The position numbers and the translations under genes were made by a program. 64,000 nucleotides of DNA from Selaginella moellendorffii (Eukaryota; Plantae; Lycopodiophyta): assembly GCF_000143415.4 (NCBI RefSeq), contig NW_003314391.1, forward strand, positions 248,001 to 312,000, in the 5' to 3' direction. Each line of letters opens with the position of its first letter. Position 1 is the first letter of the stretch. Of this stretch, positions 4,538 to 54,200 are shown in pieces. The notes below the pieces were generated by a model. The model was not told where the DNA came from and did no database searches. It saw only the letters and a program-made list of their open reading frames with translations.

Positions 4538-4880
4538 GAAGCTCGGTCTTTAGAAAAATCTGCCTGGATGATCTACAAGCATAGAAGAAAAATCACTCAT
4601 AAAATCGATTGACACACGATTTGCTTGGAAGTGCCTTGGACGCGCCTCTGGAGCTCCAGCACCATTCTGGGATCCAGCAATCGCCTTCTTGGCGACCTCA
4701 GAGCAACTTGACGGTGAGATTTCCAGTTCCCGGCCCAATCTCCAGGACAATGCTGCACGATCGACTGGACAATGAGAGGATTCCTGAGGATGTGCTGGCC
4801 CCGCAACTTGTAGAACTGGATTCCGCCCTGGAACTGGAAGCTGACATTCTCCCTCTTTTACGGCTCCGAATATTCCGCGA
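4538..4880 (-). pseudogene. DIM1: DIM1/KsgA 18S rRNA dimethyladenosine transferase pseudogene (5' part only)
   Basis: GGIQFYKLRGQHILRNPLIVQSIVQ / IVLEIGPGTGNLTVKLL / LDPRMVLELQRRVQGT / intron / IIQADF-LKTEL, spread over several frames with deletions. Not visible as one ORF in the track. Confidence 0.88.
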
Positions 4881-4970
4881 AAATTTGAATATATTATACT
4901 ATTTTCGGCTGACGTGGAGGGAAAAGGGCATGGATCCTTAAATATCCCTATCGAGGATTAGGGTGCAACC

Positions 4971-5391
4971 ATGGCGAAGAGTGAGAGTAGCCCAGCTCCA
5001 AAGAGGAAGTTTTTGCAAAGGGACTACAAGAAGGGACCTTTCTTCCAGTCGGACAATGAGCCGATCTACAAAAGGGATTTTTCAGAGCCGACTGGTGAGG
5101 ACAAGCTGGACAAGAAGTTACTGCCCAAGGTGATGCAAGTCAAGGGTTTTGGCCGGCGTGGCCGCGTCAAGTGGACGCATCTCGTCAACGAGGACACAAG
5201 CCGATGGGACACACCGTAAGTTTCTCCTTTTCTCCTTTTCGTTTCTTTTGTTTTCTTACCATTCTTCTTTCAGGTGGAGCTCGAATAACGAGTTTCGTTC
5301 CCAGTATGACAAGAAGATGGAAAAGCCGATCGAGAGGCCCCGGGGCAGCAAAAAAATGAAGACGAGCGTTCAAGACTTGTACGAAGTGTAA
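4971..5391 (+). CDS. MFAP1: MFAP1/Spp381 C-terminal-domain-only protein, 2 exons (4971-5215, 5274-5391), 120 aa
   Basis: [14 protein letters not shown]...[42 protein letters not shown] matches the conserved MFAP1 C-terminus. A 58-nt GT-AG intron keeps the frame to TAA. Confidence 0.75.
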
Positions 5392-9644: not shown

Positions 9645-11632
9645 TCAAGAACCGCCACTTTCATATCTACACACCCTTGCAGCTGTGAAAACTCTCCCTG
9701 GCCGACAGTGGTAACTCTTCTCCGGTGCGCAATGCTCATCTCTCGAGCAAATGCACAGACCCTCCAATGCACACCCGGGATTTTTCTGCTCTTCCATAGC
9801 CTTGATCCCAAGAATGCGATCGCTCCAGCGGGTGGAGAAGAGCCCACTGGGATCCATCTTCCTCATCTCTTTCACAAATCTCTCGAGCCTTGGAGATCTG
9901 CCAGTCCCAGCATTCGAGAAGGTGACCGGTGTGTTTTTCCCCCAGTGAGGAACGCCTCCGTACTTAGAAATGGCCATTTGTTCCACCTCTTGCCACACGT
10001 CCATGTTGAGCCGCGGCATGCTCCCATTTCGTGACCGGTAGTACGTAAATCCCACATCCACTCCGTCGAATGGCTTGCCGAGCAACGCCCGGGATGCGGC
10101 CACGTAGCGCAAGAGGATGCCGGTGTAGAGGTCGATCCCACACAACGCCCCGGCATCTGGGTGGGAATCTCTCAGATGCTTCACGTCCGCGATGAAGGCC
10201 GCGATGCTCTGGGCTGGGATTGTGATGCCGGATTCGAGGTAGAAGAGCGCATGCTTGGCGGAATCCCAGCCACAGATAAGCAGCCGCGATTTGGATTCCT
10301 GGCAGCCACCGGCGGTTTGGATTTTGTGCTGGAATCCCACCACTGGGTAGCCCGTGAAGAGCCGTAGGCCATGTGTGTTCTTGAGGCCGTAGCCCAGGCT
10401 TTCGAGCAGCGACACCTGTGCCCGTGACGCGATGCACTTGCCATTGGACGATCGCTGCGCCTCCAGCGTCTCCTCTGTCCGGATCGATGGAGCATTAGCG
10501 TGGTTCTTGGCTAGGATTCTTACCGAGAGCTCTTTGGGCGACGATGGCAAGCGCCAATGTGGGCTGAAAGCCAACGAATTCGTTAATTCCATTGCCGGGC
10601 GTGTTGGCGGGAACGCGATCGTCGATCCGGTAGACGGCCTCTCGCTTGGATGGGTACCAGGTCACGTCGCCGAATTCGTGCTCGTTCCCAAACGCCACGA
10701 TCTTGTCTTCCAGCCCCGCGTCGGAGGTTCTCACGTTGGTGATCGATCGCTTAAACATGGGCTCCAGCTCCAGCGTCACCTATAATGGATAGAATTGATC
10801 GATCGCGAAGATGCCAGTGCCAGATCAAGAAGAAAACCGAGAGCTCGAGTGAGAAAAGACCTTCGAGATGACTCCCATCGTTCCAAGTGAGACGATCGCG
10901 GCATAAAAGAGATCGCCATCGCCGGGGGTGAGAGTGACGATCTTCGCAACCTCGTTGTGTGAGGAAGAGGAGGAGGAATTCTTCCCGGACGGTACCACCA
11001 TGCGAAGCTTGAGGACGTGATCATGGAGAGCTCCTCCTTTGCCACGCCAGGAGCTCCCATGGGATCCAGTGCTGAGGATCCCAGCCACGGAGAGGCCATT
11101 CCAATAGGGAGACGCGGCCAGTGCCAGGCCGTGCCGCGCGGCCTCGTCGAGCACCGCCTGGAGCTGCGCTCCACCATCCACTTCCACCGCCTTGGACGTC
11201 ACGTCCACGGCAATCCCGCGGCTGTAGTTGGCGGTGCTAATGGCGAGGAGGCCACCGGCGCCGCTATGACCGCCACCATCGCCACCATCGCCATCTCCTG
11301 GGCATGCCAGCGGAGGAATGCTGTGACTAAACTTGGTCACGGCTTTCATCTTGAGCTTGTTCTTGGCTCCATAGCTCACGGCTTCCAGGAGCTCCTCCTC
11401 GTTGGATGGATACACGATCTGGGAAACCTTGCAAACCTTTTGGATCGAATCGATCATGAGAAGAATGGTGGTTTTTTTGGAGAAGCGATGAATTTACCTG
11501 TCTGGTGTTCCATGTCCCATACGAATTGGTGATGAAACAATCTCCAGAGGCGTCGCAAAATACTGGATCCGGAGGAAACGCGTCCGCCAGCAGCAGCAGC
11601 GTAGCAAGAACAAGGGCGAGCAATATTCTCAT
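9645..11632 (-). CDS. L-gulonolactone oxidase-like FAD oxidoreductase (GULLO/ALO family), 4 exons (11632-11498, 11436-10861, 10779-10524, 10474-9645), 598 aa
   Basis: Signal peptide, PPDPVFC..C.ITNSYGTW, FAD-binding SHS motif, ASPYWNGLSVAGILSTGSHGSS, GGVPHWGKN, C-terminal CALEGLCICSRDEHCAP. All splice phases are consistent. Confidence 0.93.
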
Positions 11633-12042
11633 TCTCCGCGGAATCGATCCAAATGACTGAACGAGAGCGCAAAGAACATCTGTAGAACACGTGAAAGAAC
11701 TTTAGAACAGCGGGTCCTTTTGCAGTGTAGTCCAAGCGAGAAGAGAGAGAGGGAGTGGTCCACTCATCATCTTGAAAGCTCGTTGCAATCACTGGAACTT
11801 CATGCTTTCTCCTTGGATTTGAAGCTCACCACCTTTAAACGTCATGTCCAACTCAAATAGACAAATACAGTGGAGAATGGCTATGGCTTCCATCAATCTC
11901 AAACAGAGCCTCCATCCATACCTCCAAAAGATTGAAAATGGCTAGGAAATCCAAGAAGAACAGATGGATTCTCGGCTTAAAATAATGGTTTCATAGGTCA
12001 GCAATGGCAACTAAGTCCACTGCTAGAAGTAAAGGCAAGTGA

Positions 12043-16118: not shown

Positions 16119-16386
16119 TGCGCCCAAGAACCCTAAACCCTTGAAGAGGCGGGAACTGAATCCTATGTGGCAACAAAACATGTCAAATAATAAATATATC
16201 CCACGTTATTGGACAACATGATCCGATGATCCACGCGGTGTGAACTCCATTTTCCAGATCTCCTCCGCTTTGATATCTTTGACTTTAACCATCAATCATG
16301 CTATTTCCTATTATTTTTCAACCTTTTCTCGCCAGCGGAGTTCTCCATAGATGTTCTTCGCGCTCATCAGATAGATTCCGCGACGA

Positions 16387-18343
16387 ATGAGAATGTTTCT
16401 CGCCCTTGCTCTTGCTACCCCGCTGCTGCTGCTGGCGGACGCGTTTCCTCCGGATCCAGCTTTTTGCGACGACTCTGGAGATTGTTTCATCACCAATGCC
16501 TATGGGACATGGAACACCAGACAGGTAAATTCATCACCTCTCCAGAGAAAACCATTCTTGTCATGATCGATTCAATCCAAAAGGTTTGCAAAGTTTCTCA
16601 GATCGTGTATCCATCCAACGAGGAGGAGCTCCTGGAAGCCGTGGGCTATGGAGCCAAGAACAAGCTCAAGATGAAAGCCGTGACCAAGTCTAGTCACAGC
16701 CTTCCTCCACTGGCATGCCCAGGAGATGGCGGCGCCGCTGGCCTCCTCGCCATTAGCACCGCCAACTACAGCCGCGGGATTGCCGTGGACGTGGCGTCCA
16801 AGGCAGTGGAAGTGGATGGCGGCGCACAGCTCCAGGCGGTGCTCGACGAGGCCGCGCGGCATGGCCTGGCACTGGCGACGTCTCCCTATTGGAATGGCCT
16901 CTCCGTCGCTGGAATCCTCAGCACTGGATCCCATGGGAGCTCCTGGCGTGGCAAAGGAGGAGCTCTCCATGATCACGTCCTCAAGCTTCGCATGGTGGTA
17001 CCGTCCGGGAAGAATTCCTCCTCTTCTTCCTCACACAACGAGTTTGCGAAGATCGTCACTCTCACCCCGGCGATGGCGATCTCTTCTACGCCGCGATCGT
17101 CTCACTTGGAACGATGGGAGTCATCTCGAAGGTCCTTTCTCACTCGAGCTCTCGATTTTCTTCTTGATCTGGCACTGGCATCTTCGCGATCGATCAATTC
17201 TATCCATTATAGGTGACGCTGGAGCTGGAGCCCATGTTTAAGCGATCGGTCACCAACGTGGGAACCTCCGACGTGGGCCTGGAAGACAAGATCGTGGCGT
17301 TTGGGAACGAGCACGAATTCGGCGACGTGATCTGGTACCCGTCCAAGCGAGAGGCCGTCTACCGGATCGACGATCGCGTCCCTGTCGACATACCCGGCGA
17401 TGGAGTCAATGATTTCATCGGCTTCCAGCCCACATTGGCGCCTGCCATCGTCGCCCAAAGAGCTCTCGGTAAGAACCTTAGCCAGGATTCCTAAAACTAA
17501 TGCTTATCGATCCCGACAGAGGAGACGCTGGAGGCGACGCGATCCTCCATTGGCAAGTGCAGCGCATCACAGACACAAGTATCGCTACTCCAAAGCCTGG
17601 GCTACGGCCTCAAGAACACACGTAGCCTAGGGCTCTTCACGGGCTACCCAGTGGTGGGATTCCAGCACAAAATCCAGACCGCCGGTGGCTGCCAAGATTC
17701 CGCGTCGAGGCTGCTCATCTGTGGCTGGGATTCCGCCAGGAATGCGCTCTTCTACCTCGAATCAGGCATCACAATCCCAGCCCAGAGCATCGCGGCCTTC
17801 ATCGCGGACGTGAAGCATCTGAGAGATTCCCACCCAGATGCCGGGGCGTTGTGTGGGATCGACCTCTACACCGGTGTCCTTTTGCGCTACGTGGCCGCAT
17901 CGCGGGCGTTGCTCGGCAAGCCATTCGACGGGGTGGATGTGGGGCTTACGTACTACCGGTCACGAAATGGGAGTGTCCCGCGGCTCAACATGGACGTGTG
18001 GCAAGAGGTGGAACAAATGGCCATTTCTAAGTACGGAGGCGTTCCTCACTGGGGGAAAAACACACCGGTCACCTTCTCGAATCTTGGGACTGGCAGCTCT
18101 CCAGTGCTGGAGAGATTTGTGGGAGCGATGAGGAGGATGGATCCAGATGGGCTCTTCTCCAGCACCTGGAGCGATCGACTTCTTGGCATCCAAGCTTTTG
18201 GAACTGTAATGGCAGCTGGGTGTGCATTAGAGGGTTTGTGCATTTGCGCAAGGGATGAGCATTGCGCACCAGAAAAAAGTTATTACTGTCGGCCAAGGAG
18301 AGTTTTCACAGCTGCTATGGTGTGCAGATATGAAAATGCTTGA
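16387..18343 (+). pseudogene. Second GULLO-like gene (inverted duplicate) with a single 1-bp frameshift at 17065-17068
   Basis: Same 4-exon structure and near-identical sequence to 9645-11632, including introns. Has C4 where the intact copy has C5 (ACC CCC GGC). Otherwise open. Confidence 0.8.
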
Positions 18344-31960: not shown

Positions 31961-32560
31961 TATAGCATATATGGTTTTCACCCTTTACCCTATGGTAATC
32001 TAATCATTGGACATGCTGAGCCACTAAATGAAAGGATAGAGATAAACTTTTAAGCATACAATCAAGGAGTGAAGGAATAAAAAGATGGAGAAATTCTTAA
32101 GTATACAACCAAGGGGCGAAGCAATTGGAGCACGGGAAACAATCCTAAACCACTCAGTATCCTAACGGGAACAAGAAGATGGAGTAGCTTTTGAGTATAT
32201 AGCCAATGAGTGAAGGAACTTGAATTTGGACTTCCCAAAAGGTCACTTAACTCAGTATTATTTAAACTTAATGACACTTCACTTTAAGTATCACAAGACC
32301 TTTAACAAATTAGAAAAAAAAGTACACTTTTATTCATTAACCTTTTCCTTTTATATATGAACCTTTTTGGACCATATCTCAAGTTGTTCTTTTTAGTTAC
32401 TTATAGTTGGATATAGAACAAAGATAAATATAATTAACAGGAAGGTAGATAATATCTAGGGTTAGTTAGTTATGCCTAACTTACCCACTATAGAAACACT
32501 TCTTATGGATATCCTTCCCATCAATAAAGTTGTATGTATCTCTAAGTTGGAAAAAACTAA
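31961..32560 (-). mobile_element. Highly decayed LTR fragment of the 55560-56631 family
   Basis: TATAGCATATATGGTTTTCACCCTTTACCCTATGG matches the terminus at 36580 and the reverse complement of 56580-56631. Confidence 0.55.
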
Positions 32561-33900: not shown

Positions 33901-34660
33901 TGTAAAGAACTAACTCTTTAAGGTGTCGTAAGCTAAAGGATCTTTGACATTATAACCAAAATGATAAAGAGTTCATTGGATGAGATTGAATCCAAGACTG
34001 AGTCCTAGATAAAGTTCAAGATTGAGTTCGAAACTGAGCTGAATACTAATACAAATCATGGGTGCTATGGGGGTTCCAAAAGTATAGTAAAGTTAATAAA
34101 GCTAAGGACTTAGTCTTGAAAAAAGTCTTTAGTGGTGTTTCCAAATTGAGTTGGGGTTGGAATTGAGGGTTAGTAGTTTTGGGAGCATAAGCTTGAAGAG
34201 TGTTAAAGAGGCTCCTCAAATAAGTGTTCACAATTAGCTCCCGCTCCCAAAAGGGAAATTAACTACAATTTTCCTGACTCATATAAAGTGGTGTCCTACT
34301 TGAGTACCATAAAGCTCATTGGTCCTTGCCCCTTCTTAGGGGCTTGGGCCTTCCCTTCGGGATGGAGGTGCGGTAATGTACTTATACCAAGTTGTTAGAC
34401 TATTATGTTTCCCCTAGTATCCTAGACTAAAAGATGCACCAAAGGCTTGGGATGTAGAGAGTCCTATGAACGAGCTTTGCATACCATGGGATATTAAAAA
34501 TCTTGAGGCTTGGTGTGTTTGGTTGCTTATGCATGGATGGAGTATAGCTAAACCTTAAGTCTAATTTAACTTGAAAATGGGGATTGGGAAAGAGTTTGGG
34601 AATTTTTGAAGAATTGGTTAATACTCTATTACTTGTGTAGTAAGTAGTTGAATCTAAGTA
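33901..34660 (+). mobile_element. Decayed LTR copy of the chromovirus family (homologue of 40963-41985)
   Basis: TGTAAAGAACTAACTC...AGGTGTCGTAAGCTAAAGGATC and GGGGCTTGGGCCTTCCCTTCGGGATGGA are colinear with the LTR starting at 40963. Confidence 0.8.
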
Positions 34661-34674
34661 GGTGTAGTGCACAA

Positions 34675-37599: not shown

Positions 37600-40500
37600 G
37601 GACCAAGCTCAATATCGCAGGGGTTCTTAATACTAGTAAGTGCAAGTCAATAAATGAGTTATGTGGTGCTAGCAAATGCCTAAGGAAGAAGATCCAGGGT
37701 GGAAGCTCAAGATCTAAAGATAGGGCAATGCAAGGCCAAAGATTCCTGCCTAAACCTAGTGTCCACGAGAGGACAACTCACTAAAGGAACCAAGGCAGCA
37801 TTTTTGTGCTTACTCTCGGTGAAGAGTGACAAAAAGACGAGAAGGGAAGAAGTACCTTTAGTGATCCAACGGGTGTTGGACCAATTCCAGAATACCATGC
37901 CGGAGGAGCTACCGGCGGGGTTGCCCCCCGCACGACCAATAAAACATAAGATTGAGCTGGTCGAGGTGCTGAGGCGGTGGTTCGTCCCCCCTACCGTTTG
38001 AACGAAAAGGAACTTGAGGAGCTCAAGCACCAACTAGAGGAGTTAGTGGACAAAGGGTATGTTAGGTTGAGCAAGTCGCCATATGGGGCGCCGGTGTTAT
38101 TTGTGAAAAAGAAAGATGGATCTATGCGCATGTGCATAGACTACCGGTTGCTCAACAAGTATACAAAGAAGAACAAGTACCCTTTGCCAAGGATTGAGGA
38201 CCTGTTCAATAGGTTGGGAAAGGCAAAATACTTCTCGAGGATTGACCTAAGGTCAGGATACTACCAGATTAGGGTAGTAGAGGAAGATGTCAAGAAGACA
38301 ACCTATCGAACAAGGTATGGGAGTTTTGAGTTTCTGGTGATGCCTTTTGGGGTATGCAATGCGCCGGCAACGTTTTCGGCGTTGATGAACCACATCTTTG
38401 TACCATATCTAGATCACTTTGTGGTTGTCTATATTAACGACATCCTGAGCTAGAGGAGCACGCTAGAGGAGCATGCATGTTTGAGAAACTAAGGGAACAC
38501 TAGCTATATGCTAAAGAGAGCAAATGTGACTTTGCTCAACAAGAGGTAAAGTTTCTCATGCATGTGGTGGGCAAGGACGGGCTCAAAGTGGACCCTGAGA
38601 AGGTCTAAGTGATCCATGATTGGGAGCGACCATCGAATGTACACGAGTTAAGGGCATTCTTGGGGCTATGCAATTATTACCGAAAGTTTATCAGACACTA
38701 TTCGAGAGTAGCCCTACCCTTAATGAACCAAACGGGAAAAGGGAAGATGGTATGGACAGCGGAATGTGAGGCGGTATTTGTCCACCTCAAAGGGAAGTTG
38801 AGGAAGGCTCCCGTGTTGGCATTACCAGACTTTGGTAAGGACTTTGAGGTAGAAACGAATGCTTTAGACTTTGCGTTGGGCGCAGTTTTGAAGCAAGACA
38901 ACCATCCAGTAGCGTTCTTCTCGAAGAAGTTGGACAAGGCTCAACAGAAGTGGCCTGCCCATGAGAAGGAATTTTTTGCGGTGGTCAAGGCGCTCAAGGA
39001 GTGGCGACACTACCTTGGGAGACACTTCAAAGTTTACACGGACAATGTGGCAACAAAACACTTCTTGTCACAGCCTGACCTGAGGGGGAAACAAGGTCAG
39101 TGGGCCAATGCTTTGGCCGAGTTTGATTGCGAGATTCTGTACAATCTTGGGAAGAGCAACATCGTGGCGGATGCGCTAAGTCGAAAAGCGAGCTTGAAGT
39201 TGGCAATATCCAGCGCAACAGCAACCTTTTAGGATGATGTGCGGACAACATATGAGAACGATAGTCTAGCACAAGAAGTGTTGCTGCGGAATCTGGAGGC
39301 ACGGGAAGCTCACTAGAGAGGTGAGTTGCCAATAGAAGAGAAAACGGGCTATGCAGAATGCAATGGACTCATCTATTACAAGCAAACGAGGGTGTATGTT
39401 CTAGAAGGGGAACTAAGGAAGGTAGCCTTAGAGGAGTGTCATGACAGACCTCTTGCGGGACACGGCGGAGTGCCCAAGACGATGGGCTTACTCAAGAGGA
39501 AGTATCACTAGCCAGATAGGCTAAGGACGTTTAAGACTATGTAAAGACATATCCAACATGTCAGCAGGTCAAAGCCGTGACTAAGGCTAGTGGGGGCTTG
39601 TTGAAAAGCATCCCAATTCTAGATCGTCGGTAGAAATGTCTTACAATGGACTTCATCACGGGACTCCCCCCAAACAAGGGGTTCAATGTGATATTCGTGG
39701 TGGTGGACCGATTTTCGAAAATGGCACATTTCATACCCACCATAGCGGAAGTGGACGCGGAAGGTGTGGTGAAGCTGTTCTTCGAACAAGTGGTCCAAGT
39801 GCGGGACTTGCGGAAATGTGTTATAACAACTCACCACATTCGAGTATCGGGGTGAGTCCATGGGAAGTCATCAATGGGCGAGTTATTGAAGGTCTTGTGG
39901 AGCTCAGCGTGGTCGAGTATCATGGAGAGTTACCCACAGTGGAGGCATTCACGACAGAAAGACTCAACATTTGGAATCTAGTGAGGGATTCCTTGGAACG
40001 AGCTCAATAAAGGCGAACCAAGTACACGAACCAGAAGTGTCGGGATGTAGAGTTCCAAGCTGGGGAGAAGGTGTGGCTAAATACCAAGAACCTCAGGCTA
40101 CCAAGTGGGATCAGCCGGAAGTTGACCCAAAGGTAAAAATGCATGCATTCCGTAAATGAATCGATCTTGAGTTCCTTAAGCAGGTTCGCAGGGCCTTATG
40201 AGATTGAGGCATGAATCAGTAAAGTGGCTTACCGCCTCTGACTTTCTTGAGAGATGGGGAAGATGCACCCAATGTTCTACATGAACTTACTCAAGCCATA
40301 TTTTGAGGATCCGCTTCGCAAGGACCAAGTAAGGCTTTACCTGAAGTTATCCAAGGGGAAGAGGAATATGAAGTCGAGGTCATCCTCAATGCGCACAAGA
40401 GCAAGCGACAAGGACGCGAGGTGAAAGAGTTCCATGTGAAGTGGAAAGGATTTCCACACTGTGAAGCAATATGGGAACCGGAGGAGAACCTAGCGAACGC

Positions 40501-42109
40501 GGGAGATCTAGTGGAGGAATTTCTGCAAGGCAGAACTCTATGTACTTATGCAAAGTTCAATTAAAGTATCAATTTGTGAAGTTGAGCAATGGCATATGTT
40601 GGGACCCGAAGGCGCGCCAAAGGTAAGCTAATTAGCATGGGTTAGCTAGGTCGACCAGGCGTAGAAAACTATGCCCGACTCCCCACAGGGATGTCAAATC
40701 TGTAGACGTATTCTACAGAGGTTGGGTTCGAGTCCCAACCCCCTAGTAAAGCAAGGCTGGGTTCAAGTCCCAACCCCATACTAGGGCATGGTGGGGTGAA
40801 GAATAGGGACACCTATATTCTGTTGTCATGGCTCTTGGCTGGGGAGGCTAACTTAGGCACACCGCTAAGTGGGGGGATGCCCCCGAATACATGGTCAACA
40901 AGTCGTAGGATAAAAAGAGATGTTCGATGTGGGCATTGAACTTCTTCTATAGGTGGTGGAGTTGTAAGGAACCAACTCCCTGAGGTGTCGTAGGCTAAAG
41001 GATCCCCGAAAGCATGACCAAAATGGCAAAGAGTTCATCGGATGGGACCGAGTCTGAGATCGAGTCTAAGACCGACTTTGAGACCGAGTTCAAGATAGAG
41101 ACCGGAATCAAGTCCGAGGCCAACTCGGAGACCGAGTTCAAGACCGAGTTTGAGACCGAGTTTGAGACAGAGTCCGAGATCCAAGAATTGGGTCCGAGAC
41201 CGAGTCCGAAGTCGAGTCCGAAGTTAAGTCTGAGATCGGGTCCGAGATCGAGTCCGAGACCGAATTCGAAGTCGGGTCCGAGGTTGAGTCTGAGATCGAG
41301 CCCGAGACCGAGTCTGAGTACTAATACGGGTCAAGGGGTGAAAGCCCAAAGCGTGCGTCTCCCAGGAGAGGGGGGCTACAGGGGGTTCCAAAAGTATAGT
41401 AGGGATAGTGAGGTCCAAGAACTAGTCTTGAAAGAACTCTCCAATGGTACTTCCAAACTGACTTGAAGTTGAGACTGGGGCCGAGGGGCCTTGGGTGGGA
41501 GTGAGCATGAACTCAGTGGTGCTGGAGGGGCCACCCAAAGAAGTGCTCAAGAGCAGCTCCCACTCCCGAAAGGGAAACTGATTGCGGTGCTCCCGACTCA
41601 TGTGGAGTGGTGCCCCACTTGAGTACCTTGTGGCTCATTGGTCCTCACCCTTTCTAGGGGCTTGGGCCTTCCCTTCGGGATGGAAGTGGGGGGGTAAAAG
41701 TACCCATACCAGGCCGTTAGGCCACGGTGTTTCTCCCCGGCATCCCGAAGCAAGTATTGCACCCAAGACTTGGGATTTAGAGGGTCCCATGATCAAGTCT
41801 TGTAATACCAAAGGATGTTAAGAATCTAGAAGCTTGGTGTGCTTGGCTACTTGTGCTTGTGGGGAGTGTAGCCGAACTTTAAGTCCAGTCTAACCTAGGG
41901 AGGGGGATTGGGAGAGATTTGGGAATCCGTGGATGGATGGCGAATGCTCCGTTGCTCGTGCAGTGAGTAGTTGAAACCAAGTAGGACCAAGTAGGAGCTA
42001 GTACCATAGGCGAGAACCTTGGTGAGGGAACTTAGCAAAAGCCAAGGTAGTGTTGGATGGATAGACGAGGTAAACTGGCAAATTGGAAAGGAAAAATTTG
42101 TGGCTTATA
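37600..42109 (+). mobile_element. 5'-truncated chromovirus (Ty3/Gypsy): RT-RH-INT-chromodomain, structured 3' UTR, PPT, 3' LTR 40963-42109
   Basis: [50 protein letters not shown]; chromodomain EEEYEVEVIL...VKWKGFPHCEAIWEPEENL at ~40358-40527; PPT AGGTGGTGGAGT; LTR TGTAAGG...GGCTTATA; multiple frameshifts. Confidence 0.93.
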
Positions 42110-43162: not shown

Positions 43163-44293
43163 TAGACAAACACAAAACTAAATGACCACTCGAATCCAAC
43201 TCAACCGCAATAAGCTCACTAACGCATTTAGCCAGTAGCTCCAAGTATCTCTTGAAGAGGCTAGCTATGCATGATCAACACTTAATTGGAAGCAAAGTGA
43301 AGACCATAAGATGGACTTATATTGGTACACAACCTCCTCATAGACAAAGCTATAGTACGGATACCAACATCTCAACTTTAAACAATTAAGTTGGACATCA
43401 CCATCATCAACCAAGGTGCAAGGCCACCAAGACTAAGTCAAGATTAGTGAGAGCTCACTACTCTCATAGAGTTTAACAAAATGCAAGATGCAACCTGCCA
43501 CCAAACACAATGCTATAAAAGAAAGGCATAAGGGTCACCCTTCTCAAAAAAGCGCAACCACTTTTTTACACCAACTCCAGACTCTATCCAACTCAATTGC
43601 CTTAGCCCCAAAAGCTAGCATCCCTTCCGGGCTACATCATACAAACTACTTACTAAAGTTTTAAGCTAACCAAAGTCAATTTTAACCCTTTTACTAGTTT
43701 GTACTAGCTTATGAAAATGGAATGGTTTTCGAGCAAAATGATTAATAAATCAGCCATTGGAAAAGTTTAAGAAAATTTGTGGAAAATTTTCCATCTTAGA
43801 GAAAGAATGACTCTCAGTTCAAGAATGCAAACTTTCAAGACTCAACCAACTTCCTCCTATCTACAACTTCATATAGGTTCACCTTAACACAAATTCTTGA
43901 GACCTATAGTATGCTTAAGCATCGAATATCTTGCCCATATTTCCGACATCCAACATCGACATCCCAAAAATGCAAAAATGAACATCCAAAGCTTGATCAC
44001 AAAGACCATATATTTGGACATCCACATTGCACTAACACTCTTCTTCAACCATGTTCAAGATCCAATTGTGAGACACAAAATCCCTAGGCCCCAAAGTAGA
44101 GCCGGAAAGGGTGCCACGTGGTAGTGGCCGAAGCGAGAGCCAAACGAGCGTAACACGTTTGGACCAAAAGCTCCGACTTGAAAAGACAAGAGCGGGAGTG
44201 GAACTCCCAACGAAGTGCTCGAGGAACGAGCACGAAGCGAGCAAAAGGCGAGGCTCCAAAAAGGGACCCAAAAGGACCAACACATGACACGTG

Positions 44294-44773
44294 GGAGTCC
44301 GAAGTGGAGTCCGAGATGGACCCGAGATGGAGTCCAAGATGGAGTCCGAAGTGGAGTCCGAGGTGGACCCGAGATGGACCCGAGTTGGAGTCCGAAGTGG
44401 AGTCCGAGATGGACCCGAGATGGAGTCCGAGATGGAGTCCGAGATGGAGTCCGAGGTGGACCCGAGATGGACCCGAGTTGGAGTCCGAAGTGGAGTCCGA
44501 GATGGACCCGAGATGGAGTCCGAGATGGAGTCCGAGATGGAGTCCGAGATGGAGTCCGAGATGGATCCCGAGGTGGACCCGAGATGGACCCGAAATGGAG
44601 TCCGAGATGGACCCGAGATGGACCCGAGATGGAGTCCGAGATGGACCCGAGATGGACCCGAGATGGACCCAAGATGGAGTCCGAGATGGAGTCCGAGATG
44701 GACCCGAGATGGAGTCCGAGATGGAGTCTGAGATGGAGTCCGAGATGGAGTCCGAAGTCGAGACCGAGACCGG

Positions 44774-44805
<32 letters not shown>

Positions 44806-44915
44806 TCGGGACCGAGACCGAGACCGAGGCCGAGGCCGAGACCGAGCCCGAGCCCGAGTCCGAGTCCGAATCCGAGTCCGAGTCCGAGTCCGAGTCCGAG
44901 TCCGAGTCCGGAGCC
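44294..44915. repeat. Minisatellite (12-bp GAGATGGAGTCC/GAGATGGACCC then 6-bp GAGACC/GAGTCC units) in the left LTR
   Basis: Directly visible tandem units. Confidence 0.95.
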
Positions 44916-46241
44916 TGAGAGGGTGAAAGCCCAAAGCATTCGTCTCCCAGACCCTGGGGGGTTTGGTGAGCTCCAAAAGTATAGTAGGGGGAGGACTGTA
45001 GTGGAGCCAGTTTGGCCAGGAAAGGCCAGTTTGGCCCAGGAAGGCCGGACCCAGTGTTGGGTGATGAGCTGCCCACTGGGAAGTCCAAGACTAGAGTGAA
45101 CACGGACCAACAAGTGGGGTAGCTTGGTGAAGTGTTCAAGAGCCGGCTCTAGTTCCCCCGGGAGATCGACTGGCCGATGCTCCCAGTCCAAGTGTGGGTG
45201 GCACTACCTACTTGGATACCTGGTGTGGCTCAACGGAACCCGCTCTAAGCCCATGGCTAGAGCACCCAAGGGCAGAAGGCGAGGAGAGTACCCAGGTGGC
45301 TCGCGTAAGGCCACGGTGTTCCGAAATGTTGTCCCAAAGGCCCAGACTGTGGAAAGGAAGAGGAGCAGTCCTCTGGGGTAGTGACCAAGGACACAGTCGT
45401 GTGGTGAGGAAGTCCCAGAGGACCGTGGGACTTAGTGGTCGGGCCTGTGGGTCTCGATCCAGTGGCAGTGTTGGCAAACATGGCCAGGGGCAGAAAGGGA
45501 CTTAGTGGGGACTGACAGAGGGATATTGGGGAAGGCTATTCCCCTTGTCGATGGGCATCCTAAGGATGCTAAGGAGTGGATCTGAGATGACCACTCACGG
45601 ATGGTTTGCCTAGTCTTGGAGAGCCAAGACGGTGATGCAAGTGGTATTGGACTACCAGTGTGGCAAAGGTGATTGGGCATGGCCTTAGCGTAACGGGCTG
45701 CTATGTCGGTGGTACCTTTGAGTGTCGGTCATGGGATCGGACACGTGGAGCACTTGGACCAAGTGCAAATGTTGAGTGGCATGGATGCCATTCTCGGGGC
45801 TAGCAAGTCCCAAGTCCTGGATTGGACTTATGGAGGTTGTGAATGAGACTCCTCCAAGTGGTCAGAGGTGTGGTTAAGTGACTAAAGTAGAATGGAAAAT
45901 TTAGTCGCTTACAATTTGGTATCGGAGCGGTCTCAGGTCCGACTCTGTTGGTTGGCTAAGGGAATCACACCACATGTTGATTGACATCTGACTGGTCCAG
46001 TTTGCTCCCGCTGGGCTCGACCCGAGGGGTAGGGTGTCAAGAGAGCAGGGCTCTCGGGAGAGCTATGGCTCTCAGCTTCCGTTCACGAGGGCGTGAACTT
46101 GCAGGGAAACGTGGTGGATTGTAAGCAACCAAAGGGAACGACTCGAGAGACGATCCATGGGGTTCAAATATAGAGGGAAAGGGCCCATGAATAAGAGTGC
46201 ACCCCCTTTTCCAATCGGTTAAGGGTCTTGGGATATTTGGG

Positions 46242-46296
46242 GTTAAGCGTCCTTGGGTTTGAATAGTACTGGGCTGGGTGACCTCCCGGGAAGTCC
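46242..46296 (+). promoter_or_regulatory. 5S rRNA-derived internal Pol III promoter (A box, IE, C box) within a 194-bp mini-LTR (46120-46313)
   Basis: GTTAAGCGTCCTTGGGTTTGAATAGTACTGGGCTGGGTGACCTCCCGGGAAGTCC aligns without gaps to the plant 5S core GTTAAGCGTGCTTGGGCGAGAGTAGTACTAGGATGGGTGACCTCC(C/T)GGGAAGTCC (recalled consensus; about 47-48 of 55 identical). Confidence 0.9.
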
Positions 46297-49200
46297 AAAC
46301 TAAGGAGCCTACATTTGGTATCAGAGCTGTTCCTTAGTCCAACTTTTATTGGTGCTCAAGTATATCACCACTAGTGTTGGCATCGGAAGGTCCGAGGAGT
46401 GGGCCTATCCTTGAGGAGTAGCAAGTCGGGAAGACATGGCTCTCCATTACAGTTCATGTATAAACTTGTAGACGAGGTGGTGGATAGAAAAGGGCCAATA
46501 ATGGAACGACTTTGGGATCTTGGGAACAGTGCAAGGTTTTCCTCATTGAGTTGAGGATGTGATCCGGATGAGCATTTGTCTCAGCAAATTGGCTAAGGTT
46601 GTTGTGGTAAACAACTAAAGTTGGGATCACGGGAAAGATAGAGACTCCAAAACAATAAAGGAGTCACAAAATTATCCTCATATAGTTGAGGTTGGTGCTC
46701 ATGAATGTGAGACCAGAGGTAATGACCGTGGGAGGTCAAATACGGAAGAGGACTCAAGTCCTTGAAATGGTAGCCAGGGCTACCTTTAATAAATGCTGGA
46801 ACAACTCAAGGAGTTGGGGGGTGTACTTAGGGATGAGTTGGTGTTCTCATCACATGGACAAGTAGTCCTAAGGGGCAAAGGTTGCCCCCAGAGAACAAAA
46901 TCAAGTGTCGGAGTAACACTTGTGAAAATAGTCCTTTTGAGTAGGACAGGAATGCAAGAAGTGTATTCCAGTGAGCTAGTGCCTCACAAGTAGGACCTTA
47001 CGGGTCTGTGGATTAACTAAGTCCAAAACTGTTGGATGACTCAAGTAGAGTCAACGGATGGTCCTAAAAGGACTGATGGAAGCATTTGGACTGAGGTGTG
47101 TTGTACCCCACAAAGGATGGGAGGGGATCATAGGATCCAAGGATGAGAACAGAGGGTATCTCATCGATGGCAAAATGTGCCATGCTAAAGTTATGGGAAA
47201 GGTGTTCCCAGAAGAAAACAACTTTGACATAAAGTTGTGTGTGACCTCTATGGTGCAGTGCTAACGGATGGTTGGCATGAGAAAGAGCGGTGTTGGTCTT
47301 GGCAAAGACTTAAACACGAAGGGGAAATGTCATAGAGGTAGGCTCGTGGAGCCGATGGTGTGGAGACACCAAATGTGCCAAGGTGTGATACCTTGAGGCT
47401 ATGTTGGTGGGTTCATGAGAACCCCTTGCCAAAGGAATCCCAATGGAAATGGGAATAGCATAGCCTAAGCTGCAGAGCATGCAGTTGGAGTGTGGTGACC
47501 CAGATAATGATGGAGGTGTGGAAGCACTAGCAATGAGTTGTAGGACTTGACAATTACAAGGCAACTAAGCAAGAGGTGCAAAATAACTGGTTAAACGGGT
47601 AGAAGGTAGCTACCCAAGACTTCTTAATAGCATAGGGAAGTTGGATATACCCTTACGAAGGATAACTTGCTTGTGTTGCGATATAGTAAGTCAATGTCAT
47701 AAAAGGAAATACTCATTGTCAAGAAAGCCATCATTGGGACACCCGAACACTCTAGAACACCAGAAGGTGGTGTTTGATGTCGCGAGGGCAATGGATAAAG
47801 CCCAAGGGACTAAGTCCCTAGCGAATGATGGATAGAAGGTGCTATCCAAATGTCCAAAGTTGCGGAGACAAGAGAGGACTGTTTACCCGAGTTGGACAAA
47901 GCCAAAAATGGAATTTTGGCAAGGCTAGTGATGGGCATGTAAAGGCCCATAAGCAACAACGTAATCCCGGTGTGTGGGATTATAGGGTGAGCATACCTGG
48001 ATTGAGGAACCACTCCCTAGGCTATTGGGTAGGTTCATCCCTAAGAATACTTGCTAAAGCATGATAGAAAGTGCAAAGCTATCCTCCTGGTCTGGAGGAG
48101 AATGACCAAAGGAAAAGTGTGAAGCCAAAAAGCAAGAAGTAAGGGGATAGAACCGAACCGTAGGAATCAAAGGGCATAACCAAGGTTGGTTATGCCAGCT
48201 GGGAGTGGAGAATCAAGTGGGGGCTCGAGGGTGTTGCCGCTAGCAACCGTGATGCCATGGAGAGTCTAAAATATGGAATTGTCCATGTTAGACTATGTGG
48301 CATTTGGAAGGCTTGCAAAAAGGGAGGCCTTAGCAAGCTGAGGGACAGAGTTCCTTCAAGGTTCCCAAAGACGATTCTAGGTAGCTTAGTACCTAGAAAG
48401 GCCAAGTGTAAATGGTTCATGGAACGCGCGAAATCAGAGTGGCGCAGCAGAAGCGTGGTCTTGAAACTTGCCATGAGGCAAGGCTATCAAGGTTAGGGAA
48501 GTAGTTCCTGAGTGTTCAAAGAGAGGGCTTTGAACGAAAGTCGATGGTCAAGGACTTTCACGCTTATGCAGGAACCATGTTACAGTGGTCGGAGGACTTG
48601 CCAAGCGAGATTGGCACGTCGGGGGAACAAATACCCTAGTTGAAGGTGATAACTTCAAAAAGGGTGGGCCATGGGGCCGAGCATGGAGGAGTCCATGCAT
48701 GATCACAGACATGTCAAGTGAGAGGACTTGGCAGTGTGGAGGAACTAGGTTCCTAAGCTGTGATCTGTAGCGCGCTTTAAAAATAAGTTGGTGCACCGGC
48801 GTGGGGAGTCACGCCAGGCATCTTGTGTGATGCCGTCCGTAGATGCATATACGGAGGTTGGGTTCGAGTCCCGACCCTCTAGTGCTTGGGTTCGAGTCCC
48901 AAATCACTAGGGTGTGGTGATGGTTTGGAATATGAGGACACTCATATTTCGGTGGTCATGGACTCTCAGTGGGGAGACTGGTTTGGGCACACCGCCAAGC
49001 GAGGGATGCCTCGGAGTCGTGATGCACGGTTAGATTGCTTAGTGTGAAAGCTCGGCATATCTAACTTGAACGCTTTGGTGCGAGTGGCACCAAGGACGTG
49101 GTGAGTGAGATGGGGACACCTAATCTCAGTTGCTATGGACCCTTGGCCGGAAGGGCTGGCTTGGGCGCACCGCCAAGTGTGGGGGATGCCCCCGGGGTCG

Positions 49201-50213
49201 TAGTTAACAAATTAAAGGTCTGGAAGACCTAGTACCTATTGGCCGAGGTGAGATCACTAGGTGATCTTGTGGCTAAATAAGGACAAGGTCCTTGTTTGGG
49301 TTAAGGAATAAGGTTCCTAGTTCAAAGTGTTGATTTGAACTATTGATGATGGTGTGGCTTGGTCAAGGTGACCAAGTGGGAAAAGCACCCTAGGGAAATG
49401 AGCTATGTCATTGCGATGGCATAGTGTGTCCAAGGAAAGTAGTCTCTAAAGAGACCCATGGGAGGGTCACAAAGTTGGGCCGTGGATAGAGCCCACAGCA
49501 GAAGATGCTAAAGAGACTTACTAGGGGCGAACACCCTAGTCTTGGCAAAGCAGAGCCTTTGCTAAGGAATCACAAGAATACCTCAAGGAGGGAGGTAGAG
49601 ATTCGATGTTGCTTGGTGCAACAATCAACGGATAGGAGCAAAAGATGAGTGGCCAAGATAGGGCCGTGGAATCCCTTGGAAGGAATCCAAGTGACAAAGT
49701 TAGGCGAGGAACACTAATGTGTTGGACGCTAACAAATTCCGGAAAAGGAAGTGTGTTTCCAAGGATGAATTCCGAATTGCTCTGATTTGGCGAAAGTGGA
49801 AGCTCCAAGGGAGGGAGCGGTAAGGTAGCCAAATGATAGGGCCATGGACAGCCCTAGCACAAAGTATGATAAATGGAACTTAGTGCCCAAGGTGGCACGA
49901 AATAGAAGAGAGGATGATGGTGCCCTCAAGTAATGAGCTTCCTAGGATGGGGAAGTGGAGTTGCACAATCTGTGCAATGCAAGGTGTTGGAGACACCTAG
50001 GAAATTGACTTCCAAAAGTCAAAAGAGTAAAAGTTCCAAGGTGCAAACGTTCAATAGATGGAAATTGAGACTACTTGAGAAGGAGTAGCGGGATTGACTT
50101 AGAGAAGGGTCTCTAAAAGGTTTAGCGAGAACTAAACCAATAAAAGGAGAGAACCACTACATGTGGTCCAATTAGTCTCTAAGTTGGAGAGACAACCCCT
50201 TTAAAGGATAGGT

Positions 50214-50345
50214 AAGGCATGGTGAGCCTTTGGTGTCAAACCATTGAGGAATATGCAAAAGGCATGGTGAGCCTTCAATGGCAAACCATTGACGAATATG
50301 GAGAAGGCATGGTGAGCCTTCAATGTCAAACCATTGACAAATATT
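50214..50345. repeat. Three tandem ~45-bp units upstream of the PPT
   Basis: AAGGCATGGTGAGCCTTCAATGGCAAACCATTGACGAATATGGAG-type unit, three copies. Confidence 0.9.
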
Positions 50346-50675
50346 GGCTAGGTGCCAAGGATGGAAATGGTAACACATGCGGGTGTTACTTTATAAAATG
50401 GTTTACCGTTCGATGAGGACATCGAACTTCGTCTATGGGTGGTGGAGTTGTGAGACACAAAATCCCTAGGCCCCAAAGTAGAGCCGGAAAGGGCGCCACG
50501 TGGTAGTGGCCGAAGCGAGAGCCAAACGAGCGTAACACGTTTGGACCAAAAGCTCCGACTTGAAAAGACAAGAGCGGGAGTGGAACTCCCAACGAAGTGC
50601 TCGAGGAACGAGCACGAAGCGAGCAAAAGGCGAGGCTCCAAAAAGGGACCCAAAAGGACCAACACATGACACGTG

Positions 50676-51133
50676 GGAGTCCGAAGTGGAGTCTGAGATG
50701 GACCCGAGATGGAGTCCGAGATGGAGTCCCAAGTGGAGTCCGAGGTGGACCCGAGATGGACCCGAGTTGGAGTCCGAAGTGGAGTCCGAGATGGACCCGA
50801 GATGGAGTCCGAGATGGAGTCCAAGATGGAGTCCGAGGTGGACCCGAGATGGACCCGAGTTGGAGTCCGAAGTGGAGTCCGAGATGGACTCGAGATGGAG
50901 TCCGAGATGGAGTCCGAGATGGAGTCCGAGGTGGACCCGAGATGGACCCGAAATGGAGTCCGAGATGGAGTCCGAGATGGACCCGAGATGGAGTCCGAGA
51001 TGGAGTCCGAGATGGACCCGAGATGGACCCAAGATGGAGTCCGAGATGGAGTCCGAGATGGACCCGAGATGGAGTCCGAGATGGAGTCTGAGATGGAGTC
51101 CGAGATGGAGTCCGAAGTCGAGACCGAGACCGG

Positions 51134-51165
<32 letters not shown>

Positions 51166-51275
51166 TCGGGACCGAGACCGAGACCGAGGCCAAGGCCGAG
51201 ACCGAGCCCGAGCCCGAGTCCGAGTCCGAATCCGAGTCCGAGTTCGAGTCCGAGTCCGAGTCCGAGTCCGGAGCC
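50676..51275. repeat. Minisatellite in the right LTR (22 bp shorter, with reshuffled units relative to the left)
   Basis: The offset between the two repeats changes from 6382 to 6360 across the array. Confidence 0.9.
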
Positions 51276-54200
51276 TGAGAGGGTGAAAGCCCAAAGCGTT
51301 CGTCTCCCAGACCCTGGGGGGTTTGGTGAGCTCCAAAAGTATAGTAGGGGGAGGACTGTAGTGGAGCCAGTTTGGCCAGGAAAGGCCAGTTTGGCCCAGG
51401 AAGGCCGGACCCAGTGTTGGGTGATGAGCTGCCCACTGGGAAGTCCAAGACTAGAGTGAACACGGACCGACAAGTGGGGTAGCTTGGTGAAGTGTTCAAG
51501 AGCCGGCTCTAGTTCCCCCGGGAGATCGACTGGCCGATGCTCCCAGTCCAAGTGTGGGTGGCACTACCTACTTGGATACCTGGTGTGGCTCAACGGAACC
51601 CGCTCTAAGCCCATGGCTAGAGCACCCAAGGGCAGAAGGCGAGGAGAGTACCCAGGTGGCTCGCGTAAGGCCACGGTGTTCCGAAATGTTGTCCCAAAGG
51701 CCCAGACTGTGGAAAGGAAGAGGAGCAGTCCTCTGGGGTAGTGACCAAGGACACAGTCGTGTGGTGAGGAAGTCCCAGAGGACCGTGGGACTTAGTGGTC
51801 GGGCCTGTGGGTCTCGATCCAGTGGCAGTGTTGGCAAACACGGCCAGGGGCAGAAAGGGACTTAGTGGGGACTGACAGAGGGATATTGGGGAAGGCTATT
51901 CCCCTTGTCGATGGGCATCCTAAGGATGCTAAGGAGTGGATCTGAGATGACCACTCACGGATGGTTTGCCTAGTCTTGGAGAGCCAAGACGGTGATGCAA
52001 GTGGTATTGGACTACCAGTGTGGCAAAGGTGATTGGGCATGGCCTTAGCGTAACGGGCTGCTATGTCGGTGGTACCTTTGAGTGTCGGTCATGGGATCGG
52101 ACACGTGGAGCACTTGGACCAAGTGCAAATGTTGAGTGGCATGGATGCCATTCTCGGGGCTAGCAAGTCCCAAGTCCTGGATTGGACTTATGGAGGTTGT
52201 GAATGAGACTCCTCCAAGTGGTCAGAGGTGTGGTTAAGTGACTAAAGTAGAATGGAAAATTTAGTCGCTTACAATTTGGTATCGGAGCGGTCTCAGGTCC
52301 GACTCTGTTGGTTGGCTAAGGGAACTACACCACATGTTGATTGACATCTGACTGGTCCAGTTTGCTCCCGCTGGGCTCGACCCGAGGGGTAGGGTGTCAA
52401 GAGAGCAGGGCTCTCGGGAGAGCTATGGCTCTCAGCTTCCGTTCACGAGGGCGTGAACTTGCAGGGAAACGTGGTGGATTGTAAGCAACCAAAGGGAACG
52501 ACTCGAGAGACGATCCATGGGGTTCAAATATAGAGGGAAAGGAACCAACTTAAGCTTAGCATAATGGATCACCATTGAGAATCCAGTCAAAGCTACTATA
52601 ATGTTATTACTTGCAAATAGACTAGCTTCACCATCAACCACTTTGGGGTTGATCATTGTTTGACCAAGCAACTTCGTAAACACATTGTTTATTATCACAT
52701 GGATATGATATAGAAATCACAATGACTTGATCATCAATTGAGCAACACCATGAGCAACTCCCACATCATTACTATAAAGGTTTACGTGACTATCAAGTGC
52801 CAACTCGATTCGACAAAATACACCATAAATGCCACACCCCACCAATAGAAATTTACAACATTTAACACCACAAATTTTTGTTCACAACACAGACAAGCTC
52901 ATGCCACTCTCTTTTTGACTAACCTCAAAACTAATCCAACATTAAGCTACTTAAGGAGCAATAGCAAGGTTTCCCGAAAAAAAAGTGAGTATTGCAACCC
53001 AAGTCTTCAAAAACAAGCCTCTCCTTTACGTTCAAAGATGTTAAAACTCAGACACCCTCCAGCCGTTGTGCTTGTCCATGAACCTTTATCTCATACCTGG
53101 GGTATTACGTTTATGTTGGACAAGTATATAACTTGATGGCAAGAGTATAATGTTTGAGTCTTGTGAAGGCAAGTTGAAATAGTGATTGCTAATTGCTTGG
53201 CAACTAATAATTACTTGTAGACTTTGTCAAGGACTGTTGACACTTGCTTCACTCAATGTTGATTTAGCAGTGATGCATTTGCTTTACCAGTTAGTGTTGC
53301 AAAGGATTGTGTCATAGGCTTGCTTTCCATATTGGGATATCAACTCTACCTTTGACGATATTATTTAGTTGTGTTTAATCCATAGTGTTAGATTTTATGG
53401 AGTCTTGGATGTGGTGAATCACTCTTTGATGATGTGTTATCTGTAAGTGAGTATTGTTGAAAAATTAGTCTTAAATACTGACTAAATTATCTTCAGTTTT
53501 GGTTAGCTTGGTTGCTAAAGAATTTTGAATGGTGATTCACTTTTGTTTTCTATTAGCTTTATTATGGTGTTGATAGCATTGAAGTGATGCCTTGTCGTTG
53601 ACAATATTGATATTGAGATTCAAGTGAAATGAAATGTCTCTCCTTAGAATTGATATTGAATTTCATTAGTCTTGATATAGATAGTGTTAATGATTTAGTT
53701 ATAGCTTTATGTTATTAACATTCATGCATTTGTTAATTAGCAACTTGACGTTGAAACGATCTGAGTGGCAAGTGGAGTTAGTTGTGTTCTAGATGAGATT
53801 GCTTAGTCAAGGTTGAGTTTTAGCTTTTCCTTGAAAAGTGATTTAGTCATGGACTATACTAACTTTACGAGAGGAAGAATTAGTGATTGATATTAAAATG
53901 TTTGAATCTTAGTTGGATTTAATTTGGGAATATATCGATTATTGATGATTCTTCTAGTACTTGTTATGAAGTGAGTTACGTTTTATTATAGATGGATTCA
54001 TGAAGGATCGATTAGTTGGTCACTTGTTGAGCATCGCTTCGTTATGCTTAACTTTTGGATTAATGCAGATATGTTCTTCATTAGCTTTAACATTATGTAG
54101 TTTAACTTGTGGATGTGTTGAAGAAGATATTATGGGTTGTACCATGATTTCTTCTTTAGCATTAATGTTAGTTCTTGCGAAACACGTGATCATTTATTAA

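Follow-up and report, generated by a model that had tools for sequence, protein, structure and literature searches.

Retrozymes are hammerhead-bearing non-autonomous LTR elements. Non-autonomous elements are described as depending on a packaging signal that acts at the level of structure, and packaging signals as conserved in structure alone and hard to identify (PMC4558846), while LARDs are reported to carry conserved RNA secondary structure (PMC7215508). The MTE of musD, ~400 nt long and adjacent to the 3' LTR, is described with kissing and pseudoknot contacts (PMC4588558), and export elements of this type are reported to use the NXF1 route (PMC4588558, PMC5767303). The chromoviruses SM1- and SM2-Galahad are characterized by a group I chromodomain, an LTR of ~1 kb, hundreds of copies and a Met PBS (PMC3350952), and for SM-Tcn1 an LTR of 440 bp is given (PMC3350952, PMC2864245).

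A chromovirus, a LARD and their common internal sequence

The window analysed here, a 64,000-nt stretch of the Selaginella moellendorffii genome (NW_003314391.1, positions 248,001 to 312,000), contains a Ty3/gypsy chromovirus on its forward strand. One gene of the window matches a protein of this spikemoss at 100% identity over 98% of the query, which identifies the host. The pol of this element is decayed, with stops and frame breaks: RT (37956–38450, RVT_1) and RNase H (38609–39229, RT_RNaseH) lie in broken frames, and the 3' end encodes a chromodomain (40367–40525, Pfam PF00385, E 6e-14) whose frame ends at ~40564. An untranslated stretch of ~400 nt follows, then a hairpin and the polypurine tract (40922–40962) and a 3' LTR of ~1 kb (40963–42000, right end approximate), recognized by its TG start after the PPT, by homology to 33901–34662 and by motifs common with the LARD LTR. 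The features of the Galahad clade present are a Ty3/gypsy pol with a terminal chromodomain, the Selaginella host and an LTR near 1 kb; because host, chromodomain and LTR length fit the published descriptions, we prefer SM1- or SM2-Galahad over SM-Tcn1, Fogey, Diluvium and Cranky, and the chromovirus is probably of Galahad type.

The element beside it is, judged by its sequence, a LARD, non-coding and with LTRs that share motifs with the chromovirus LTR. Its left LTR (44067–45913, TG...CA) is related to that of the chromovirus, enlarged by 12-nt tandem repeats and followed by a Met-type PBS; the right LTR (50449–52273) is 98% identical to it; and a PPT and a long interior without coding frames are present (between 46300 and 50450 the longest stop-free frame is at most 110 aa, non-coding being judged by frame length). 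The 12-nt repeats occur in the LTRs at 41040–41330, 44290–44910 and 50670–51270, are strongly expanded in the LARD, and give rise to long spurious open frames on both strands. The 5' part of the LARD (45914–46330) is chimeric, the order being chromovirus-type LTR, Met PBS, a 200-nt stuffer, a PPT, a Cassandra-like short LTR with 5S-derived sequence (46120–46313; Rfam 5S rRNA match at 46223–46310, 30 bits, E 3e-4) and a second Met-type PBS. The same chimeric unit recurs after the right LTR (52274–52542), where the start of a second Cassandra-like unit ends abruptly at 52542, and a decayed second copy of the Cassandra-like LTR lies at 32225–32403 on the minus strand (73% to 46122–46299). Elsewhere in the window, an inverted duplicate L-gulonolactone oxidase-like gene (9656–11649 and 16370–18338, 90%) flanks a sugar-transporter-like gene.

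A sensitive BLAST comparison of the 4.5-kb LARD interior (45915–50447) with the chromovirus interior gave three matches at E<0.05: a structured element, a second copy of part of it, and the 40 nt before the PPT (88% between 40922–40961 and 50408–50447, hairpin included; hairpin and polypurine tract together span 50408–50448 in the LARD). That this element and the pre-PPT sequence are the sole shared internal sequence points to a cis-acting RNA signal rather than a translation element; as a non-coding LARD gains nothing from translation signals, we infer that the retained fold most plausibly serves the RNA on its way to being reverse-transcribed.

The whole element covers ~240 nt (40658–40899 in the chromovirus, where the PPT ends at 40962). 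Its upstream half (40658–40786, plus strand, z −3.9) is predicted to form five hairpins, three of them short and the last two T-loop-like (GGG-TTCRAGT-CCC), and aligns with 48798–48912 of the LARD, where the same hairpins recur with altered stems; in the family majority, by DNA-run depth, the first upstream hairpin of the chromovirus gains a GGAG loop, as in the LARD. The two tandem T-loop hairpins (40719–40786 and 48855–48912) match the familiar B-box consensus, the second standing on an extended stem of minihelix size. Downstream of these five hairpins lies a module, present once in the chromovirus (copy A) and twice in the LARD (copies B and C). The five precede copies A and B, and the LARD repeats just the last of them, in altered form, together with the module, so that the spacer between B and C (49029–49096) consists of a long LARD-specific hairpin and then a hairpin replacing the second T-loop hairpin. 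The fold z is −3.35 for the whole chromovirus element and −5.66 for the 421-nt LARD stretch. In the chromovirus the module is located within the 3' untranslated region, between the pol stop and the PPT; in the LARD it lies 2.5 kb behind the nearer PBS.

The original prediction had reported three versions of this module, each with a GACA hairpin, a 17-nt element and a GATG hairpin, and all were found at the positions claimed, with the GACA loops at 40808–40811 (A), 48937–48940 (B) and 49115–49118 (C), and the GATG loops at 40876–40879, 49005–49008 and 49185–49188, respectively. The 17-nt motif TTRGGCRCACCGCYAAG occurs three times in the 64 kb, even when 2 mismatches are allowed, against 0.04 expected. 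In the predicted fold, a long GACA-capped stem is followed by a four-way junction with a closing helix and three arms: the first bears a purine loop, either GGGGA or GGAAG, the second a loop of 8 nt (GCRCACCG) and the third the GATG tetraloop. The 17-nt element forms a 6-bp hairpin of its own. Beyond what had been predicted, a fourth hairpin and the closing helix complete the junction, and the GACA stem extends further down. In copy A the long stem spans 40787–40829 (closing pair probability 0.94) and the junction 40831–40899, with arms at 40836–40850, 40851–40870 (loop GCACACCG) and 40871–40884 (GATG loop) and a damaged closing helix. In copy B the stem spans 48913–48960, and the junction (48961–49018; arms 48967–48980, 48981–49000 and 49001–49012) has helix probabilities of 0.7–1.0 and zero unpaired junction bases. 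In copy C, with its stem at 49097–49137 and junction at 49138–49199 (arms 49144–49158, 49159–49178 and 49179–49193), all pairs are possible and an alternative hairpin competes. A covariance model built from the three copies found no fourth copy in the window (next match 12 bits, E 0.12), and the other Ty3 element in the window carries no such module.

Covariation, variation and age of the module

In the three-copy alignment 94% of cells are paired and 10 of 37 pairs have changed on both sides, a covariation that none of 500 shuffles reached; slid controls gave 0–3 such pairs, and both controls are lenient, as the structure was derived from the same three sequences of one genome. Changed pairs were kept in 11 of 15 cases between A and B, 9 of 15 between A and C, and 15 of 17 between B and C, and 6 of the 15 kept between the two LARD copies are double changes. 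The claim that loops are fixed while stems covary holds as a tendency (17 of 21 columns invariant in hairpin loops, 37 of 74 in stems; Fisher p=0.013) and fails as strict fixity: the purine loop has two forms, and position 49166, in the CACC loop of copy C, reads either C or T, the difference being carried by about half (52%) of the LARD depth.

Family variants point the same way for the chromovirus. One DNA run gave 30 difference rows, 10 of them in module A, of which seven were assessed (two at 40802 beside a low-depth indel, and one below 1% in the DNA run, were excluded). Four of these seven family-majority differences create or strengthen a predicted pair, one turns A-U into G-U and two are unpaired; none of the seven breaks a pair, and none falls in the GACA, CACC or GATG loop. 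The family letters at 40886 (97%) and 40888 (99.6%) restore closing-helix pairs that are damaged in copy A. For the LARD, 40 of 184 difference rows were covered, and seven of these 40 lie in B or C: one (49138 G>A, 8%) breaks a closing pair of copy C, one leads to G-U, and the model leaves the remaining five, 49166 among them, unpaired. The proposal of a selected cis-acting RNA structure is thus supported by covariation and by retention in a non-coding element, and under the predicted fold the module is a structurally selected RNA element of one lycophyte retrotransposon lineage.

Folding energies set limits on the predicted junction. It is the MFE structure for copy B alone and lies 1.5 (A) and 3.0 (C) kcal/mol above the MFE in the other copies; once flanks are included it hardly figures in the ensembles of A and C, its probability in C being near zero with 150-nt flanks, and copy A alone has a z of −0.39. 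The plus strand folds better than the minus strand in all three copies. Hairpins abound along the whole LARD interior (z≤−2 in 40 of 67 windows, against 0 of 12 chromovirus windows starting at 39900–40560), so folding alone cannot mark the module out. An alternative partner for the CACC loop is the invariant TGGTG at the foot of the GACA stem; this pairing shows no covariation, and through it the region may act as a switch.

As to the predicted duplication in the LARD, the copy number of two stands. B and C (75/111 identical, 68%) are as distant from each other as each is from A (A and B 80/109, 73%; A and C 78/110, 71%), so that an old duplication and a second capture are indistinguishable. 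Since the LARD LTRs are 98% alike and B and C 68%, the second module is either much older than the insertion or comes from another helper subfamily. B and C are covered at even depth, and each of the 15 best-supported deletion joints (of 75) comes from one or two contigs, so two modules seem to be the LARD rule. By the modelled pairs, both LARD modules are maintained, the second probably likewise under structural selection. One contig fuses the LARD LTR end straight to 48612, giving a shorter variant with the element ~190 nt behind the LTR, the usual position of a packaging signal; this is a single contig with its junction at a shared TGG, and may be a plain deletion.

Both families are highly repeated, and their summed depths (1.63 million for the LARD stretch, 0.92 million for the chromodomain) lie within a factor of about two, a crude ratio of 1.8 that is not a copy number. 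With helper and parasite families both this abundant, and B and C as far apart as each is from A, the suggestion that duplication gave the LARD a packaging advantage is unsupported. In two RNA runs the LARD stretch received 3 and 3 reads and the chromovirus stretch 4 and 0, numbers too small to judge expression, strand or cleavage; among these 0–4 reads per run and stretch, read ends form no pile-up.

Searches elsewhere returned no homologue outside the host among the viral, metagenome and Ty3-related loci covered. In 104 Ty3/gypsy-related loci (31–48% RNase H identity) covariance model R1 had no match under E 2 (104/104), and model R2 had none in the 90 loci searched; this absence is weak, since many of the loci stop short of a 3' UTR and models built on two or three sequences have low sensitivity. 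The 17-mer pattern had 0 matches in metagenome contigs. Its 28 viral matches were dismissed, as none of the 28 carries the flanking hairpin words in a pattern scan, as were 1 + 7 further viral loci from pattern scans, none of which fits model R1 (best E 0.48); the single viral locus with a double T-loop proved to be a phage tRNA cluster. Rfam has no family matching the module at its gathering score, with chance-level matches alone at E≤10, and a motif search of published supplements, in which formatting may split motifs, found no match. The fold is undescribed in Rfam and in the literature searched, a set outside which Repbase and most subscription papers lie, and the RNA element of the Selaginella chromovirus and LARD was apparently undescribed before.

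Candidate functions of the element

Packaging is, we infer, the most likely single function for the module: at a rough probability of 0.45, it would be the cis signal by which the helper's Gag or nucleocapsid recognizes genomic RNA and loads it into particles. We favour a loading signal read by Gag because the fold is lineage-restricted, as expected if its partner evolves along with the element, because conserved purine-rich loops sit on variable stems, and because the parasite has retained it. In the mechanism we propose, the module would make up the 3' half of an RNA structure, predicted and conserved, that covers ~240 nt of the chromovirus 3' untranslated region, in which the GACA-capped stem beside the four-way junction would display three short loops; the stems would serve as scaffold and the purine-rich loops would contact Gag or each other. 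The LARD, encoding nothing, would retain the signal because it requires entry into its helper's particles, and its second module would add binding sites or widen the helper range. Two generalizations count against packaging here: retroviral packaging and dimer signals are described as sitting in the 5' leader (PMC5874298), and elements next to the 3' LTR as typically being export elements (PMC4588558).

The 3' position favours instead an export or stability element read by host factors, a plant counterpart of the musD MTE and IAP RTE, which we consider a real, if minority, possibility. The LARD would then keep and double the element since its RNA, long and non-coding, has to exit the nucleus and persist, so that retention in a non-coding element fits equally well, and the position between the pol stop and the PPT, the size of ~240 nt and the multi-hairpin build all match the MTE description. 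However, searches against Rfam linked the element to no known export element, whether by sequence or by model, the LARD element lies 1.2 kb upstream of its PPT, and plants are reported to use TREX, not TAP/NXF1 (PMC12786077). By that account no study has directly addressed how plant LTR RNA is exported, and Ty1 Gag itself promotes export (PMC12786077), for which reason packaging and export are not mutually exclusive.

A role in reverse transcription, whether in dimerisation, primer placement or strand transfer, for example by loop–loop contacts (GACA with GAUG, or TGGTG with CACC), appears unlikely. The two invariant tetraloops end in base pairs' worth of complementary letters (CA and UG), and the invariant TGGTG is likewise complementary to the CACC(G) loop, but both contacts join invariant bases and are hence without covariation, and a 2-bp match is no better than chance. 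The tetraloop kiss of MLV reportedly consists of two base pairs between particular loop bases. Tetraloop kisses are described as stabilising MLV dimers (PMC5874298); here, however, the copies share no palindrome, and co-folding two of them gains merely 5–7.5 kcal/mol. We would hold it just as unlikely that packaging and dimerisation are combined in one 3' signal, with a heterotypic two-bp GACA/GAUG kiss (CA with UG) as an independently arisen counterpart of the retroviral GACG/GACG kiss and two diverged modules letting the LARD use more than one helper subfamily.

It is quite improbable that the element is a captured tRNA- or Pol III-derived remnant, whether DNA promoter boxes or a plain hairpin-rich interior with no specific RNA function. 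The upstream T-loop hairpins do contain B-box matches, the LARD holds a 5S-derived unit, and the tRNA-derived Helenus-1_SMo is reported from this genome (PMC10886601). However, the module itself has no B-box; all A-box-like matches are downstream of the B-boxes, in A and C, and copy B keeps the stem but loses the A-box-like motif; neither ARAGORN nor Rfam calls a tRNA; and the compensatory changes speak for selection acting on pairing in the RNA. Reading the junction itself as tRNA-like was dropped, as no T-arm follows the junction and the A-box-like word is lost in B. In a Tekay-like element filed as a viral contig, two degenerate tRNA-like stretches lie in the LTR (4830–4900 and 5000–5070); they have no ARAGORN call and are not homologous to the module.

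That the module is a self-cleaving ribozyme of unknown class, processing the element's RNA as hammerheads do in retrozymes, seems very improbable: its four-way junction, its conserved loops and its recurrence within a non-autonomous element would suit such a class, but there is no Rfam ribozyme at E≤10, no core word of hammerhead, hairpin or HDV type on either strand (by the commonly known motifs) and no conservation of internal loops or junction bases, the usual site of catalytic cores, and cutting the genomic RNA internally at two sites would leave PBS and PPT on different pieces.

Comparison with known systems

The chromovirus of the window resembles SM1- and SM2-Galahad in host, group I-type chromodomain, LTR of ~1 kb and Met PBS, a likeness by description; the available portion of those descriptions (PMC3350952) mentions neither a 3' UTR structure nor a LARD. 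In layout, the element departs from tRNA-derived Pol III units of the Helenus or SINE type, as no A-box lies upstream of the B-box and the module is internal, not in an LTR. The LARD is like retrozymes in being a non-autonomous plant LTR element in which a structured RNA motif recurs, but the module has no hammerhead and is internal, not in the LTRs, and common to the helper. Like the musD MTE and IAP RTE, the element described here is a multi-hairpin structure that lies between pol and the 3' LTR and measures a few hundred nt; it has no detectable similarity to them, and its plant host is without the NXF1 route, so that an export role would be read by analogy.

The gammaretroviral GACG kissing hairpins, invoked in the original prediction, resemble the module in several respects: SL-C and SL-D are likewise two tetraloop hairpins beginning with GA, with conserved loops on variable stems, and occur in an LTR retroelement and its defective partner. 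The analogy fails on loops, position and palindromes: GACG tetraloops are found in none of the three copies and GACA and GAUG (GATG in the DNA) in all three, one of them in a four-way junction; the module lies 3' of pol; and there are no shared palindromic hairpins (no palindrome of at least 6 nt in A, and those in B and C not shared). The module is outside the gammaretroviral GACG psi family, and it is in its working that it would resemble a retroelement cis signal. If packaging is its function, the signal would lie at the end of the genome opposite to the retroviral norm.

In overall build there is a likeness to described LARDs, which share with the LARD of the window a non-coding interior, LTRs, PBS and PPT, and widespread predicted structure (PMC7215508); what sets the window LARD apart is one defined fold, traceable to its helper's 3' UTR and present twice. 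In this helper–parasite pair, a single small covarying fold makes up nearly all of the internal sequence that the two have in common, so that the question of packaging becomes testable with an RNA of 120–240 nt.
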